This document shows positions 44,337 through 48,820 of a stretch of 64,000 nucleotides of DNA, piece by piece. The notes under the pieces were generated by a model. The model ran no database searches and was not told the origin of the DNA. It was given only the letters and a program-made list of their open reading frames with translations. Numbering within the stretch: the stretch's first letter is position 1; every line of letters starts with the position of its first letter. The DNA comes from an uncultured Pseudomonadota bacterium (GTDB lineage: Bacteria > Pseudomonadota > Alphaproteobacteria > JACZXZ01), in assembly GCA_963749075.1 (NCBI GenBank), contig CAVVLJ010000016.1, positions 960,001 through 1,024,000 of the forward strand. The letters are read 5' to 3'. The translations under genes and the position numbers were made by a program.

Positions 44337-44876
44337 ATGGGCTCCCACTACTGCGACGTAGCCCCGGGCCATCCCTGGCACGGCGCCTACCACGACGACG
44401 AATACGGCTTTCCGCTGGCCGACGAGGCGGGGCTCTTCGAGCGCCTCGTGCTCGAGATCAACCAGGCGGGCCTGAGCTGGCTCACCATGCTGACCAAGCG
44501 CGAGGCCTTCCGCCGCGCCTACCGCGGCTTCGCGGTCGACCGCGTCGCCCGCTTCGGCGCGCGCGACGAGGCGCGCCTGCTCGCCGATGCCGGCATCGTG
44601 CGCAACCGGCTCAAGATCGCGGCCGCGATCGAGAACGCCAAGCGCATCCGGCGCCTGCGCGCGAGCCACGGCTCGCTCGCCGACTGGCTCGCCGCTCACC
44701 ATCCGCGCGACAAGGCCGCCTGGGTCAAGCTCTTCAAGGAAACCTTCGTCTTCACCGGCGGCGAGATCACCGGCGAGTTCCTCATGTCGATCGGCTATCT
44801 CAAGGGCGCCCACCGGGAGGACTGCCCGGTCTTCGAGCGCATCGCCAAGCTATCGCCGCCCTGGATGCAGGCCTAG
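44337..44876 (+). CDS. tag: DNA-3-methyladenine glycosylase I
   Basis: YHDDEYG, LEINQAGLSW, GIVRNRLKI, H...C zinc ligands. Confidence 0.93.
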   Translation: MGSHYCDVAPGHPWHGAYHDDEYGFPLADEAGLFERLVLEINQAGLSWLTMLTKREAFRRAYRGFAVDRVARFGARDEARLLADAGIVRNRLKIAAAIENAKRIRRLRASHGSLADWLAAHHPRDKAAWVKLFKETFVFTGGEITGEFLMSIGYLKGAHREDCPVFERIAKLSPPWMQA

Positions 44877-44936: not shown

Positions 44937-45097
44937 GTTCCGCGTCGCTGGGCAGTGCTGAAAAATCTTGTTTCGATTTTAGCGAGCAGCTTCCCTCTGC
45001 GACGAGAAGTTCTTTCTCCCTACACTTAGGGCCGCCCGACTGGAGCAAGCCCCTTTTTCGCCGCTTCGGCCCGCTGCTCCGGACACCGACGCGGCGC
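44903..45097 (-). ncRNA. Candidate ~190-nt structured sRNA
   Basis: TTGCAA-N17-CAATAT promoter at 45131-45103; predicted start coincides with a 5' hairpin (45096-45059); two further hairpins; U-tailed terminator; no credible ORF. Confidence 0.55.
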
Positions 45098-45180
45098 CCA
45101 CCATATTGCGCGAGGCCAGACAGGATTGCAATAGAAAACGGCAAAAAACGCCCGGGATTGCCGAGATTTTCGGCAAATTC

Positions 45181-45262
45181 TGCTGCAATGCGGAAGCTCT
45201 TCAGCGGAGCGGGCGTAGGCGTTTCGGCACGGCCTGCCCTTGTTTATGTTGCAGTGCAGCAT
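45181..45262. promoter_or_regulatory. Two PhaR(AniA)-like boxes between the divergent sRNA and GNAT promoters
   Basis: TGCTGCAATGCG (45181-45192) and near-palindromic ATGTTGCAGTGCAGCAT (45246-45262). Confidence 0.65.
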
Positions 45263-45322
45263 CATCTATCCAAGGCACGGGCGGGGGCCGTTCCTCCCCG
45301 GCACATTGGCATATGAGGGAGC

Positions 45323-45946
45323 ATGTCCTCCGATTTACCGGCAGCGCCCGATGACGGCGGGCGCTTGATCTACCGCAGGATATGGCCGCGGGAGCGCGCC
45401 TTGGTGAAGGCGCATCTCCTGCGTCTCGACGAGGAAAGCCGCCGGCGGCGGTTCTTCGGCCATGTCTCGGACCTCGTCGTCGAGAGCTATTGCGAGCAGG
45501 TCGTTTCCACCGGCTATCCCATCCTGGGCTGCTTCGCAGCAGGCGTGCTGCGCGCGATAGCTGAGCTGCGCACGTTCGGGGCGGCCGGCGCGCGCAAGGC
45601 CGAGCTCGCGGTCTCCGTGGAGCGGCCGTTCCAGGGCCGCGGCATCGGCGCCGAGCTTGTCCGCGAGGTGATCGTCCTGGCGCGCAACCGCTCGGTGCGC
45701 GTGCTGCACATGTCCTGCCTGCGCGAGAATGGCCCGATGCAACTCATCGCGCGCAAGCTCGGCGGCACGCTCGAGTTCCGCGAAGGTGAGGTGGCGGCCC
45801 GCATCAATCCCCCGTGGCCGACCTATTGGTCGCTCATGGAGGAGGCCTTCTCGGAGGGGCGCGCGGTCATGCATACGCTCGAGCTTGCGCAACACGGCGC
45901 AGCATCGGAGCGCGATGGAGAAGGCCGAAGCGTCGCGGCCGACTGA
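45323..45946 (+). CDS. GNAT-family acetyltransferase
   Basis: HLLRLD...RRRRFF, AELAVSVERPFQGRGIG (motif A), CLRENGPMQLIARK. Confidence 0.88.
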   Translation: MSSDLPAAPDDGGRLIYRRIWPRERALVKAHLLRLDEESRRRRFFGHVSDLVVESYCEQVVSTGYPILGCFAAGVLRAIAELRTFGAAGARKAELAVSVERPFQGRGIGAELVREVIVLARNRSVRVLHMSCLRENGPMQLIARKLGGTLEFREGEVAARINPPWPTYWSLMEEAFSEGRAVMHTLELAQHGAASERDGEGRSVAAD

Positions 45947-46027
45947 GCAACGGCGGCGGCGGGCCGCCGCGGCAGAAGCCGGCGATGCCGTTGCGCGCCG
46001 CATCGGCTTTCCCTGTCCCGCCCGGGC

Positions 46028-46285
46028 TCAGCGGCCGCGGAGTGCTGCGACCGCCTTTGCCTTTTCCTCCCTCGACAGGCGGGAGTCGCCGAGGATCATG
46101 GCGATCTTGCCTTCGATAAAGGCGCGCTCGGCCGCGCGGTCGCGCGGCACCTTGCGGCTGATCCGCGCGAATTCCTCGCGCATGTCCGTCGCCGGTACGC
46201 GTTCCCCGCTCCGGGGATCGATCACGTCCATCGGCGTTCCGCCCGGCGGCTCCGGCGGCGTGGCCGGCCTCGATGTGCGAGCCAT
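46028..46285 (-). CDS. 85-aa hypothetical protein homologous to the N-terminal segment of the upstream gene
   Basis: GGAG ribosome-binding site before ATG 46285; 17/52 ungapped identities with residues ~23-74 of 46316..47257 (counted by hand). Confidence 0.75.
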   Translation of the reverse strand: MARTSRPATPPEPPGGTPMDVIDPRSGERVPATDMREEFARISRKVPRDRAAERAFIEGKIAMILGDSRLSREEKAKAVAALRGR

Positions 46286-46315
46286 CGTCTTTCTCCGCAG
46301 TCTCATCGGCAACAC

Positions 46316-47257
46316 TCAGCTGTTCACCGCCCACGTATAGTTGGCATCGAGGAAGAGCAATTTGAAGCCCTTGTTGTCGGTACGCACATAGCTGTCGGCG
46401 GGGCCGGGCAAGTGCCAGCTGCCCCAGTTGCCGTTCTGATCCATGCTGATCAGCTGGGTGTTGATGGCACCCATGGCGCCCGTGCCTTGATAAGCATTCT
46501 GGAACGTTTCGACGATCGGCCCCCAACTCCCCACCCAGCCTGTTTGCTGCTGGGCGACCGTGGCCGTGTAGCCGTATTGGTAGACCAAGTCCCAGCGATT
46601 GGCGGCGTGATTCCAAAGGAACACCTGATTGTACCAATAACCGGACTGGCTCGCGACCGTCGCATTGTAGATCGACAAGGTCTGGTACGGATGTCCGTGG
46701 GCGGAGGTTGTCTGGAGATAGTTGCCGAGATTGCCGAACGGTATGTTCGTCTGCCACGGGGCATTGGGATAGCGGGCCCAATCGAACACCTTGAAGAAGG
46801 TGCTGTTCTGGCCGTTGTAGGCGACAAAGGCCTCGACGCCCATGGCGGAGCGGTTGGTGGCGGTGAGATAGAGGAAGGTATTGACGTTGCCGCCCGGTGG
46901 ATTGGGGCAAATCACCGGAAAATAGATTGCCGTCCCGAGGCCGAATGCAGTCTTGAATGGGCTATTGTAGAAGATGCCGTAGCCCACTCCGCCTGGCACC
47001 GGCCCTTGCGGCTTGGCGCCCTTCGGGAGTGCGAGACGGGCGCTCAATTCGGCGTGCGCAGCATCTCGCTCGGCGAGCGCCAGTGTCGGATGGGTATGAA
47101 GAATATGAAGCTTGCTCGCAAGGAATGCCGCCTCGAACTCCGGCTGGCGCGGGCTCCGCCCCGTCATCTCGGCAAAACTCTCTCTCGCGTCGCCCACCTC
47201 CAAGCCGCCCTGCGGCCCAGCCACGGGAAGCGCCAGCGCGATTGAGCTTTCAGCCAT
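46316..47257 (-). CDS. 313-aa hypothetical protein; candidate neprosin-like glutamic peptidase with N-terminal propeptide
   Basis: GGAGG ribosome-binding site before ATG 47257; helical N-terminus, Pro-rich linker, aromatic/Asn/Thr-rich domain with only two Glu (GVEAF, WGPIVE). The CDS is well supported; the function is inferred. Confidence 0.7.
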   Translation of the reverse strand: MAESSIALALPVAGPQGGLEVGDARESFAEMTGRSPRQPEFEAAFLASKLHILHTHPTLALAERDAAHAELSARLALPKGAKPQGPVPGGVGYGIFYNSPFKTAFGLGTAIYFPVICPNPPGGNVNTFLYLTATNRSAMGVEAFVAYNGQNSTFFKVFDWARYPNAPWQTNIPFGNLGNYLQTTSAHGHPYQTLSIYNATVASQSGYWYNQVFLWNHAANRWDLVYQYGYTATVAQQQTGWVGSWGPIVETFQNAYQGTGAMGAINTQLISMDQNGNWGSWHLPGPADSYVRTDNKGFKLLFLDANYTWAVNS

Positions 47258-47503
47258 GGATATGCCTCCCAATGTTGGTCGCCGCCACCCTGCCCGGTCG
47301 CGTCGGGCGGCAACCCAACTAGTGGAAATTATGGACGTTATACCACCGATTGGAGATCGAGAGGCGGAGATTCTCAAAATCGGGCTGTAACGTGCGCGCG
47401 TTTCTCGAAATGCTTGCAGCAGTGCCAGAGCCGGCGCCATTGCCATCCCAGAGGCCATTGCCTACAGTCCGGCCCGACCAAGAGCCAGGAGTGCTAGCCT
47501 GCC

Positions 47504-48820
47504 ATGCGCCTTTCCGCCTACTTCATGCCGACGCTCAAGGAGAACCCGGCCGAGGCGCAGATCGTCTCGCACCGCTACATGCTGCGCGCCGGCATGATCC
47601 GCCAGGCGAGCGCCGGCATCTACAGCTGGCTGCCCCTCGGCTTCCGCGTGCTCAAGCGCATCGAGCAGATCGTGCGCGAGGAGCAGGACCGCGCCGGCTG
47701 CCAGGAGCTCCTCATGCCGACGATCCAGTCGGCCGACCTCTGGAAGGAGTCCGGCCGCTACGAGGACTACGGCAAGGAGATGCTGCGCATCCAGGACCGC
47801 CACGAGCGCGAGATGCTCTACGGCCCGACCAACGAGGAGCTCATCACCGAGATCTTCCGCGCCTCGGTCAAGAGCTACCGCGAGGTGCCGAAGCTCCTCT
47901 ACCACATCCAGTGGAAGTTCCGCGACGAGGTGCGGCCGCGCTTCGGCGTCATGCGCGGGCGCGAGTTCCTCATGAAGGACGCCTATTCCTTCGACCTCGA
48001 CTTCGCCGGCGCCCAGCGCGCCTACAACAAGATGTTCGTCGCCTACCTGCGCACCTTCGCGCGCATGGGCCTCAAGGCCATCCCCATGGCGGCCGAGAGC
48101 GGCCCCATCGGCGGCGACATGAGCCACGAGTTCATCATCCTGGCGGACACCGGCGAGAGCAAGGTCTTCTGCCACCGCGACTTCGTCGAGTTCGACGTGC
48201 TCGGCAGCGACTTGAGCTCCGGGGACGACCTGGCACCCGTCGTCGACCATTGGACGAGCCTCTACGCCGCGACCGACGACAAGCACGACCCCGAGGCCTT
48301 CGCCGCCATCGCTCCGGAGAAGCGCATCGAGGCGCGCGGCATCGAGGTCGGGCACATCTTCTATTTCGGCACCAAGTACTCGGCGCCGCTCAGGGCCTAC
48401 GTGGCCGACGCCAAGGGCGCACCGCACGCCGTGCACATGGGCTCCTACGGCATCGGCGTCTCGCGCCTGGTCGGCGCCATCATCGAGGCGAGCCACGATG
48501 AGAGCGGCATCATCTGGCCGGAGCCGGTATCACCCTTCAAGGTCGGCCTGATCAACCTGCGCGCGGGCGATGCGGCCTGCAGCGAGGCGTGCGACGCCAT
48601 CTATGCCAGGCTGGCCGCAGCCGGGGTCGAGGCGCTCTACGACGACCGCGAGGAGAGTGCGGGCGCCAAGTTCGCCGAGATGGACCTCATCGGGCTGCCC
48701 TGGCAGCTCGTTATAGGGCCGCGCGGCCTCAAGGGGGGCACCGTCGAGCTCAAGGCGCGCAAGAGCGGCGAGCGCCACGAGCTCTCCCTCGAGAGTGCGC
48801 TCGAGCGCCTCTGCGGCTAG
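47504..48820 (+). CDS. proS: Proline--tRNA ligase (short alphaproteobacterial type)
   Basis: [39 protein letters not shown]. Confidence 0.98.

Follow-up and report, generated by a model that had tools for sequence, protein, structure and literature searches.

We have analyzed 64,000 nucleotides of DNA from an uncultured bacterium of the Pseudomonadota (GTDB lineage Alphaproteobacteria; JACZXZ01), namely positions 960,001 to 1,024,000 of the forward strand of contig CAVVLJ010000016.1 (NCBI GenBank assembly GCA_963749075.1). We call this whole stretch the window, and all coordinates given here are positions in it. The subject is a pair of adjacent genes on the minus strand, lying between tag and proS, which we name gene A and gene B (Table 1). 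An earlier note, made from the sequence of the window alone, had observed that the C-terminal domain of the gene A product has just two glutamates, spaced as in neprosin, and had proposed that it is a bacterial glutamic peptidase.

Table 1. Features of the locus, in order of position in the window. Residue numbers are those of the gene A product unless gene B is named.
Feature	Position	Strand	Description
tag	44337..44876		left neighbor of the variable segment
variable segment between tag and proS	44949..47503	.	holds the GNAT gene, gene B and gene A
GNAT gene	45323..45946	plus	in the variable segment
gene B	46028..46285	minus	85-residue protein + stop; N-like part encoded by 46034-46192
GGAG	46293..46296	minus	7 nt 5′ of the gene B ATG; read from the sequence
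gene A	46316..47257	minus	313-residue product (P0001) + stop; putative N-terminal cap domain, linker, two-Glu beta-sandwich
C-domain	46319..47002	minus	residues 86-313; modeled beta-sandwich, opening with the conserved PVPGGVGYG strand
E250 codon	46508..46510	minus	second invariant Glu; end of strand 245-250; predicted contact with gene B residue 69
E142 codon	46832..46834	minus	first invariant Glu; near the start of strand 141-148
linker	47003..47032	minus	residues 76-85; length and sequence vary among relatives (alignment columns 165-185); lowest model confidence
N-domain	47033..47203	minus	residues about 19-75; short strand 21-23 and helices 25-34, 39-54, 61-75 (AlphaFold2)
Shine-Dalgarno-like GGGAGG	47265..47270	minus	7 nt 5′ of the gene A ATG; read from the sequence
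proS	47504..48820		right neighbor of the variable segment

We take the ATG at 47257 as the start of gene A, and the same start is found in homologues and in the database entry for the product, which also has 313 residues. A longer open reading frame (ORF) that starts at 47458 (46316-47458, 380 residues) was considered and rejected, because both the relatives and the GGGAGG ribosome-binding site favor 47257. The ATG of gene B comes 31 nt past the stop of gene A, and the database cluster for its product (P0454) has 85 residues as well. On the opposite strand, an open frame of 277 codons (46412-47245, plus) covers nearly all of gene A, and similar frames cluster across 51 loci; this frame most likely arises from codon bias in high-GC DNA and is no gene. 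Four sequencing runs are listed for the stretch, all of metagenome DNA and two of them with small shares, and none is of RNA.

The N-domain has invariant columns at D23, F45, K49 and R64 in an alignment of 38 close relatives. Around the linker, the two blocks of the AlphaFold2 model that cover residues 71-90 have a predicted local distance difference test (pLDDT) of 74 and 59. What the earlier note took for part of a Pro-rich linker, the motif PVPGGVGYG, is instead the conserved first strand of the C-domain. The C-domain itself is rich in Asn, Gln, Thr, Tyr and Trp and has few charged residues. The absence of a signal peptide, also claimed by the note, agrees with a crude hydropathy scan, which finds no signal-peptide-like stretch in the gene A product and, among 117 close relatives, detects such a stretch in only 2.

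The two glutamates and the fold around them

The gene A product has 10 glutamates in total. Eight of them are within the first 70 residues, and residues 86-313 have just the remaining two, E142 (SAMGVEAFVAY) and E250 (GSWGPIVETF), which stand 108 residues apart; count, codons and spacing are all correct by translation, as the earlier note had given them. Having 2 glutamates in 228 residues is a scarcity beyond chance, both with respect to the N-terminal part of the same protein (8 in 85; Fisher p = 6e-4) and with respect to five neighboring genes, where glutamate makes up 6.9% (binomial P = 1.2e-5).

A total of 350 sequences, made up of family proteins and ORFs of the loci, were aligned to a C-domain profile; the rows of this alignment are not independent, since some ORFs duplicate database proteins. 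The number of glutamates per C-domain across 282 members goes from 2 to 17, with a median of 6. Exactly these two are present in 32 of the 282, and no member has fewer. The pair is invariant in all 38 close relatives, and it is kept in 43 of 44 relatives going down to 28% identity, the sole exception being a sequence without either. In the larger alignment, 296 sequences cover both sites; 292 have Glu at both, 4 have Glu at neither, and not one has a single Glu alone. The earlier note had staked its reading on the conservation of the two residues among homologues, and they are conserved, being lost only together. At the first position, 317 of 322 sequences have Glu, and no sequence has Gln.

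Other residues are conserved about as well as the glutamate pair: D159 (320 of 321), N210 (311 of 312), N135 (309 of 321), and also R136, T132, Y130 and W245. The sequences that have lost both glutamates (P0166, P0265, P0266 and P0268) retain other conserved residues such as N135, and probably derive from enzymes that have gone dead. That the two are kept or lost together fits a catalytic pair with a few dead-enzyme offshoots, and it would fit a binding site as well. A mean-field direct coupling analysis of 245 non-redundant C-domains (effective number 175) ranks the 142-250 pair 1134 out of 24,976, and it is dominated by gap artefacts, hence uninformative.

The AlphaFold2 model of the gene A product, made from a 38-row alignment, has pLDDT 89.9 and a predicted TM-score (pTM) of 0.90, with an all-beta domain that spans residues 91-312. 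Against the PDB, Foldseek puts scytalidoglutamic peptidase (2ifr_A) first, with E = 2e-6, and reports neprosin (7zu8/7zva) with E = 7-9e-5; the TM-scores of this search are only 0.33-0.48. We also compared the model with 48,161 PDB representatives using VIA-align, which is independent of Foldseek, followed by a second-look alignment round. The best VIA-align match is the neprosin zymogen 7zu8_A (Z 12.9, root-mean-square deviation (rmsd) 3.7, 223 aligned residues, model 1-313 against chain 67-377), and Z >= 8 is reached by only 9 chains. In the second look, ranks 1 to 12 are all peptidase entries. Those of neprosin have Z 11.6-13.0, and they include 7zva_A (Z 13.0, rmsd 3.8, 221 aligned) and the mature enzyme 7zvb_A (Z 12.0, rmsd 3.5, 190 aligned, model 87-313 against chain 132-377). 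Z values for the di-glutamate mucinase HC7 are 10.5-10.7, for the eqolisins 9.9-10.6, and for the protease CPAVM1 9.8. Below the peptidase entries are the glucanases of glycoside hydrolase family 16 (GH16) with Z 8.9-9.7, and lectins are near 6.4. As a lead only, the ESM Atlas has just two named neighboring clusters, Peptidase_A4 and Neprosin, both at 0.90.

Structure prediction followed by Foldseek was one of the checks proposed by the earlier note, and what comes out closest is eqolisin and neprosin. The C-domain is modeled as a beta-sandwich, and the solved structures nearest to the model are Glu-dependent peptidases, with neprosin first by VIA-align. A shared fold is no proof of the function of the C-domain.

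In terms of sequence, we find 570 relatives of the gene A product at E <= 1e-3 among 90% clusters, and 376 family representatives among 50% clusters. Among 120 listed relatives, none has a Pfam domain and every given name is "hypothetical protein". A species-genome collection has 73 loci, in Planctomycetota, Acidobacteriota, Actinomycetota (Streptomyces, Mycobacterium), Alpha- and Betaproteobacteria, Bacillota, Verrucomicrobiota and others. Searches with the protein and with the family profile against Pfam, NCBIfam, PADLOC, PHROGs and PDB sequences returned chance-level rows only, and a full-text literature search found no paper on the family. The neprosin domain PF03080 and its pro-domain PF14365 do not match the gene A product (PF03080 not even at E <= 10), nor does PF01828, the eqolisin domain; and PF03080 was found neither in the window's own genome nor in 4 genomes that carry the family.

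Membership of PF03080 was rejected given the lack of a profile match, an hhalign probability of 0.7%, and an N-domain that is helical, where the neprosin pro-domain is all-beta. Membership of PF01828 was rejected as well: there is no profile match, the hhalign probability is 0.4%, and the Gln-Glu dyad is absent, the first position never being Gln. Forcing local and global hhalign alignments to the neprosin family leaves the glutamates unpaired, and those alignments are uninformative either way; bacterial neprosins, by comparison, have TIEVGW and FGGE motifs that align with TIEAGW and WGGE of the PDB neprosin sequence. The family of gene A is a new, separate sequence family with the neprosin/eqolisin fold and a neprosin-like Glu pair, and it is a member of neither family.

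Some distant members start differently. A signal-peptide-like or lipoprotein-like start is seen in 20 of 92 distant representatives, and the N-domain is detectable between leader and C-domain in 8 of 22 leader-bearing relatives. The order of leader, N-domain and C-domain is that of the pre-pro-enzymes of secreted proteases. In one distant member of 751 residues (P0263), the C-domain is combined with SLH, Big_7 and PKD domains, which points to the cell surface. C-domains are also embedded in very large distant proteins, at L069:3139-6858 (1240 codons) and L071:3902-6997 (1032 codons), both open frames. As a separate observation on neprosins, none of 122 bacterial PF03080 proteins (P0271-P0392; loci L076 and L077) has a signal-peptide-like hydrophobic stretch in its first 45 residues by the same kind of crude scan, so that true bacterial neprosins may be leaderless too.

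Gene B, the predicted complex and the mobility of the pair

When the family profile is searched against the genome of the window, the second match is a 95-codon ORF directly downstream of gene A (profile positions 18-81, E = 1e-8). This is the ORF of gene B; residue numbers of gene B used here run to 95, and the product has 85 residues. Comparing gene B with the family N-domain, hhalign gives a probability of 98.2%. The gene B model has helices at 46-55, 60-75 and 82-94, with exactly the spacing of the fused N-domain shifted by 21 residues. Both copies share the conserved D-x-R, F, AF and K positions, and in both helix 3 starts with a basic residue, R64 for the fused copy and K85 for the free one. 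By these similarities, gene B is a free-standing paralogue of the N-domain of gene A. A Foldseek search with the gene B model recognized no relative (best E 1.1), and nothing usable came from searching the ESM Atlas with gene B.

A free N-domain ORF just downstream and on the same strand is present in 51 of the 71 loci that have at least 350 nt of downstream sequence, and in all 47 of the closest ones (L003-L049). Free N-domain proteins form 92 database clusters, mostly of 77-102 residues. In a tree of free and fused N-domains, 49 of 52 free copies fall in one clade that has no fused ones, and the branch support of that clade is only 0.16. The tree suggests that a single duplication may have given rise to the free N-domains.

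We have predicted the complex between the C-domain (residues 86-313, 38-row alignment) and gene B (residues 36-95, 40-row alignment), with unpaired alignments. Three runs give scores of 0.91, 0.92 and 0.91, and the best of 3 controls has 0.01. The contacts of the runs agree to at least 86%, and the pLDDT of the partner is 86. In the calibration of this score, 116 of 157 solved complexes came up to this mark, as did 2 of 215 mismatched pairs, counts that apply only roughly here, where our own unpaired alignments were used.

On the enzyme side, the predicted interface consists of residues 86-91, 127-128, 130, 146, 148, 168-173, 221-227, 245, 250, 252, 292 and 294. It includes Y130, W245, E250, R292 and D294, and the face it occupies holds most of the invariant polar and aromatic residues. 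Residues 146 and 148 are on the strand of E142 and have the same side-chain parity as E142. The most confident contacts are between gene B residues 43-46 and strand 221-227; the equivalent fused residues, 21-23, form a strand in the single-chain model, and we therefore infer that free and fused domains would bind the same site and compete for it. The gene B product is thus predicted to bind the face of the C-domain that carries E250. The complex model supports such binding without demonstrating it. The earlier note had also spoken of a dedicated inhibitor; a dedicated partner does exist in gene B, placed by the prediction over the face with E250, and its inhibiting the enzyme is our inference.

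The pair sits in a segment that varies between relatives. The gap between tag and proS is about 470 bp in the same-genus genomes G307 and G305, 1.4 kb in G309, 5.5 kb in G306, and 2555 bp here. GC content is 63.3% in 46001-48000, versus 67-72% in the flanks. A gene of the gene A family is absent from all 40 relatives searched (5 at genus level, 5 at family level and 30 at class level). Apart from gene B, no neighbor is common to more than 6 loci, and those 6 are syntenic loci of Mycobacteroides/Mycobacterium; Pfam annotation of 82 neighboring ORFs from 16 loci is heterogeneous. Gene A and gene B behave like a self-contained module that moves horizontally.

A few loci have the pair next to genes with TIR/NB-ARC, PLD, NB-ARC-TPR or caspase domains (L015:2-3692, L049:5397-7907, L005:1-843), too few for an association with defense islands. 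In the 82-bp gap between gene B and the convergent GNAT gene there is a 36-nt stretch (45962-45997) that recurs at 92% identity in the variable spacer of two same-genus genomes without the pair. This stretch is perhaps a terminator that the genomes share, or else a junction element.

What the pair may be, and what it resembles

Our best explanation is that gene A encodes a two-glutamate hydrolase, probably a peptidase, that is made as a capped pro-enzyme and has a pro-domain-like inhibitor encoded in trans. We assign to it a probability of about one half. The gene A product would be the pro-enzyme of an unnamed family of two-glutamate hydrolases with the neprosin/eqolisin fold, most likely a peptidase of the glutamic type. 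E142 and E250 would form the catalytic pair and lie on the concave face of the sandwich, as suggested by their conservation, their joint loss and the fold. The N-terminal domain, a strand plus three helices, would pack on the two-Glu face as a pro-domain-like cap, a role we propose because the single-chain model is confident and because relatives are built as signal peptide, N-domain and C-domain. The variable linker may allow the cap to be released or cleaved. In the leaderless clade, a duplicated free N-domain, gene B, would be co-transcribed downstream. By prediction, its product docks on the same C-domain face and touches E250, and it may hold inactive, inside the cell, any enzyme whose cap has been lost or opened. 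As a self-contained module, the two genes would move jointly between soil bacteria that are only distantly related. A free copy of the cap is useful only if the fused one can leave, and its presence therefore gives indirect support for some form of activation.

The distribution of gene B goes in the same direction, with qualifications. Of the 10 loci with a leader-like start none has gene B, and of the 61 that lack such a start 49 have it, a contrast confounded by phylogeny, given that the leader-bearing forms are all distant lineages. A restriction of gene B to leaderless forms is what one would expect if only an enzyme kept inside the cell needs a spare cap.

Several observations weigh against this explanation, and the confounding just mentioned is one of them. 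There are 12 leaderless loci without gene B. E142 itself is absent from the confidently predicted contacts of gene B, and the calibration of the complex score is rough. The fold is common to glycosidases and lectins, and the margin in Z over GH16 is just 1-3 units. The hhalign probabilities quoted above come from a 44-sequence family alignment compared with a 30-sequence bacterial neprosin alignment and with bacterial Peptidase_A4 domains (17 of 18 fetched loci used), and there is no sequence or profile similarity to any peptidase family in Pfam, NCBIfam and PDB. Finally, and this is the main weakness, the G1 and neprosin enzymes characterized so far are secreted and act at pH 2-4, according to excerpts of PMC3009609 and PMC9343461.

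Such a pH optimum fits poorly with a neutral cytoplasm, and therefore a two-Glu glycosidase working at neutral pH stays a serious rival, even if we consider it unlikely. The C-domain would then be a retaining glycoside hydrolase or transglycosylase with a beta-jelly-roll like that of GH11 or GH12, its two glutamates on separate strands, and the N-domains would be regulatory caps. GH16 glucanases and a putative sugar hydrolase come close behind the peptidases (Z 9.2-9.8), invariant Trp, Tyr, Asn and Gln abound in the C-domain as they do in sugar-binding clefts, and HC7 bridges glycan hydrolases and peptidases, to go by the title of Narimatsu 2024. But the top 12 VIA-align rows are peptidases, and none of the 50 rows shown of either VIA-align list is a GH11 or GH12 chain, an absence that does not exclude one further down. 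An active site of the GH16 type, with its ExDxxE motif on one strand, was rejected because the only two glutamates of the C-domain are 108 residues apart. A layout of signal peptide, pro-domain and catalytic domain, with a pro-domain-like partner, is typical of proteases and not of glycosidases, and no carbohydrate-active genes are conserved beside gene A.

We find it very unlikely that the C-domain is a non-catalytic binding module of the concanavalin A (ConA) type, either a lectin or a protein that binds a metal or ligand, with the Glu pair, D159, N135 and N210 as the binding site and gene B as an assembly partner. The equal conservation of D159, N210 and N135 would suit a metal or sugar site, and legume lectins, ERGIC-53/VIP36 and carbohydrate-binding modules (CBMs) do appear at Z 6.2-6.6; this is about half the Z of neprosin, the joint loss of the glutamates in 4 sequences that keep the fold looks like the usual pattern of dead enzymes, and a cap domain plus a spare cap gene predicted over the site make little sense for a lectin. 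We see just as little chance that the gene A product is exported without a leader and that gene B is a secretion chaperone or adaptor, not an inhibitor. The composition of the gene A product looks extracellular, and distant relatives are clearly secreted or surface-bound, among them the leader-bearing ones and the one with SLH, Big_7 and PKD domains. Yet no secretion-system gene is conserved beside the pair, the pair is found in phyla with very different envelopes, and gene B is predicted on the conserved face bearing E250, not on a terminal signal.

As for the earlier note, its observation of the two glutamates is confirmed, and its interpretation is partly supported. The beta-sandwich nearest to neprosin and eqolisin by two aligners and the retained Glu pair stand with the glutamic peptidase; a membership of the neprosin or eqolisin family is not detectable by sequence.

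The capped two-glutamate hydrolase could be taken a step further. The layout has what one sees in toxin-antitoxin systems: adjacent co-oriented genes, a small partner with predicted binding, and a patchy mobile distribution. No PADLOC model matches the pair. The pair might then be a new mobile protease-based toxin-antitoxin or defense-like switch, in which a leaderless glutamic-type peptidase is silenced in the cytoplasm by a separate copy of its pro-domain and unleashed when that copy is lost or titrated. We regard such a switch as rather improbable. If true, it would be the first intracellular glutamic peptidase together with the first antitoxin derived from a pro-domain.

Of all catalytic classes of peptidases, that of the glutamic peptidases is the smallest and has been studied least. 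Neprosin-type enzymes are useful in proteomics and in gluten degradation, and a bacterial, disulfide-free, easily expressed relative with the neprosin fold would be of practical use, if active. A spare-cap gene placed behind the gene of its enzyme is an arrangement not described before. If the gene A product is a two-Glu peptidase, it would add a new family to the class, a use of the fold inside cells at neutral pH, and the first pro-domain of the glutamic class copied into a separate inhibitor gene. The characterized members, as excerpts of PMC9343461 and PMC3009609 describe them, are secreted and acid-active, and come from fungi, one plant and one acidophilic bacterium.

Neprosin, the glutamic prolyl endopeptidase of Nepenthes, is the system most like gene A. 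Its catalytic residues are E188 and E297, 109 residues apart (excerpt of PMC9343461); the earlier note had these figures right, and the contexts it quoted are also present in the PDB neprosin sequence, as TIEAGW and WGGE. In neprosin, a water on the concave sheet bridges the two, and Q173, W175, H134, Y136 and Y214 serve as helper residues. Gene A has its two glutamates in the same order with a spacing of 108, a likeness in position along the chain. Comparing IEAGW and WGGE of neprosin with VEAF and WGPIVE of gene A, the first Glu is near the start of a strand and the second at the end of one, in neprosin as judged by sequence context. Going by offset only, the aligned ranges (87-313 against 132-377) bring E142 to one or two residues from E188 at most. 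Both proteins have an N-terminal pro-region lying on the catalytic domain, in gene A by prediction, and both have a conserved basic residue in it, K49/R64 in gene A and the K118 plug in neprosin (excerpt of PMC9343461). The pro-domains themselves differ, since that of gene A has three helices and a short strand and that of neprosin (PF14365) is all-beta, according to the same excerpt. Unlike neprosin, the gene A product has no disulfides or glycans and no leader, and it comes with a second, free cap gene; neprosin itself activates autocatalytically at acid pH and cleaves after proline.

The eqolisins (MEROPS G1, PF01828), such as scytalidoglutamic peptidase and pepG1, resemble the C-domain over its whole length (Z 10.6, 181 aligned over model 86-313), and we count as a further likeness that their catalytic residues are on a concave beta-sheet. 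They differ in being secreted and acid-active and in their dyad, a Gln-Glu about 83 residues apart (excerpt of PMC3009609). HC7, described in an excerpt of PMC13003899 as a di-glutamate mucinase/peptidase of Bacillus cereus, is alike over model 88-313 (PDB 8pmu/8pn3; a PDB title names a Glu200Ala mutant). This comparison is one of fold, and HC7, unlike gene A, is secreted, bears a CBM and cleaves O-glycosylated mucins. GH16 beta-glucanases have the same jelly-roll fold as the C-domain, and their catalytic strand is the one lacking in gene A.

For gene B, the closest comparison is with free-standing inhibitors that resemble propeptides. They include CTLA-2, which is like a cathepsin propeptide, and the yeast and fungal proteins that are like subtilisin propeptides. 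These belong to the cysteine and serine protease classes, unlike the glutamic-type fold here, and our literature search found no propeptide-like inhibitor for a glutamic-type fold or as an operon partner. What they would have in common with gene B, as we propose it, is the way of acting: a small homologue of the pro-domain that works in trans on the mature enzyme.

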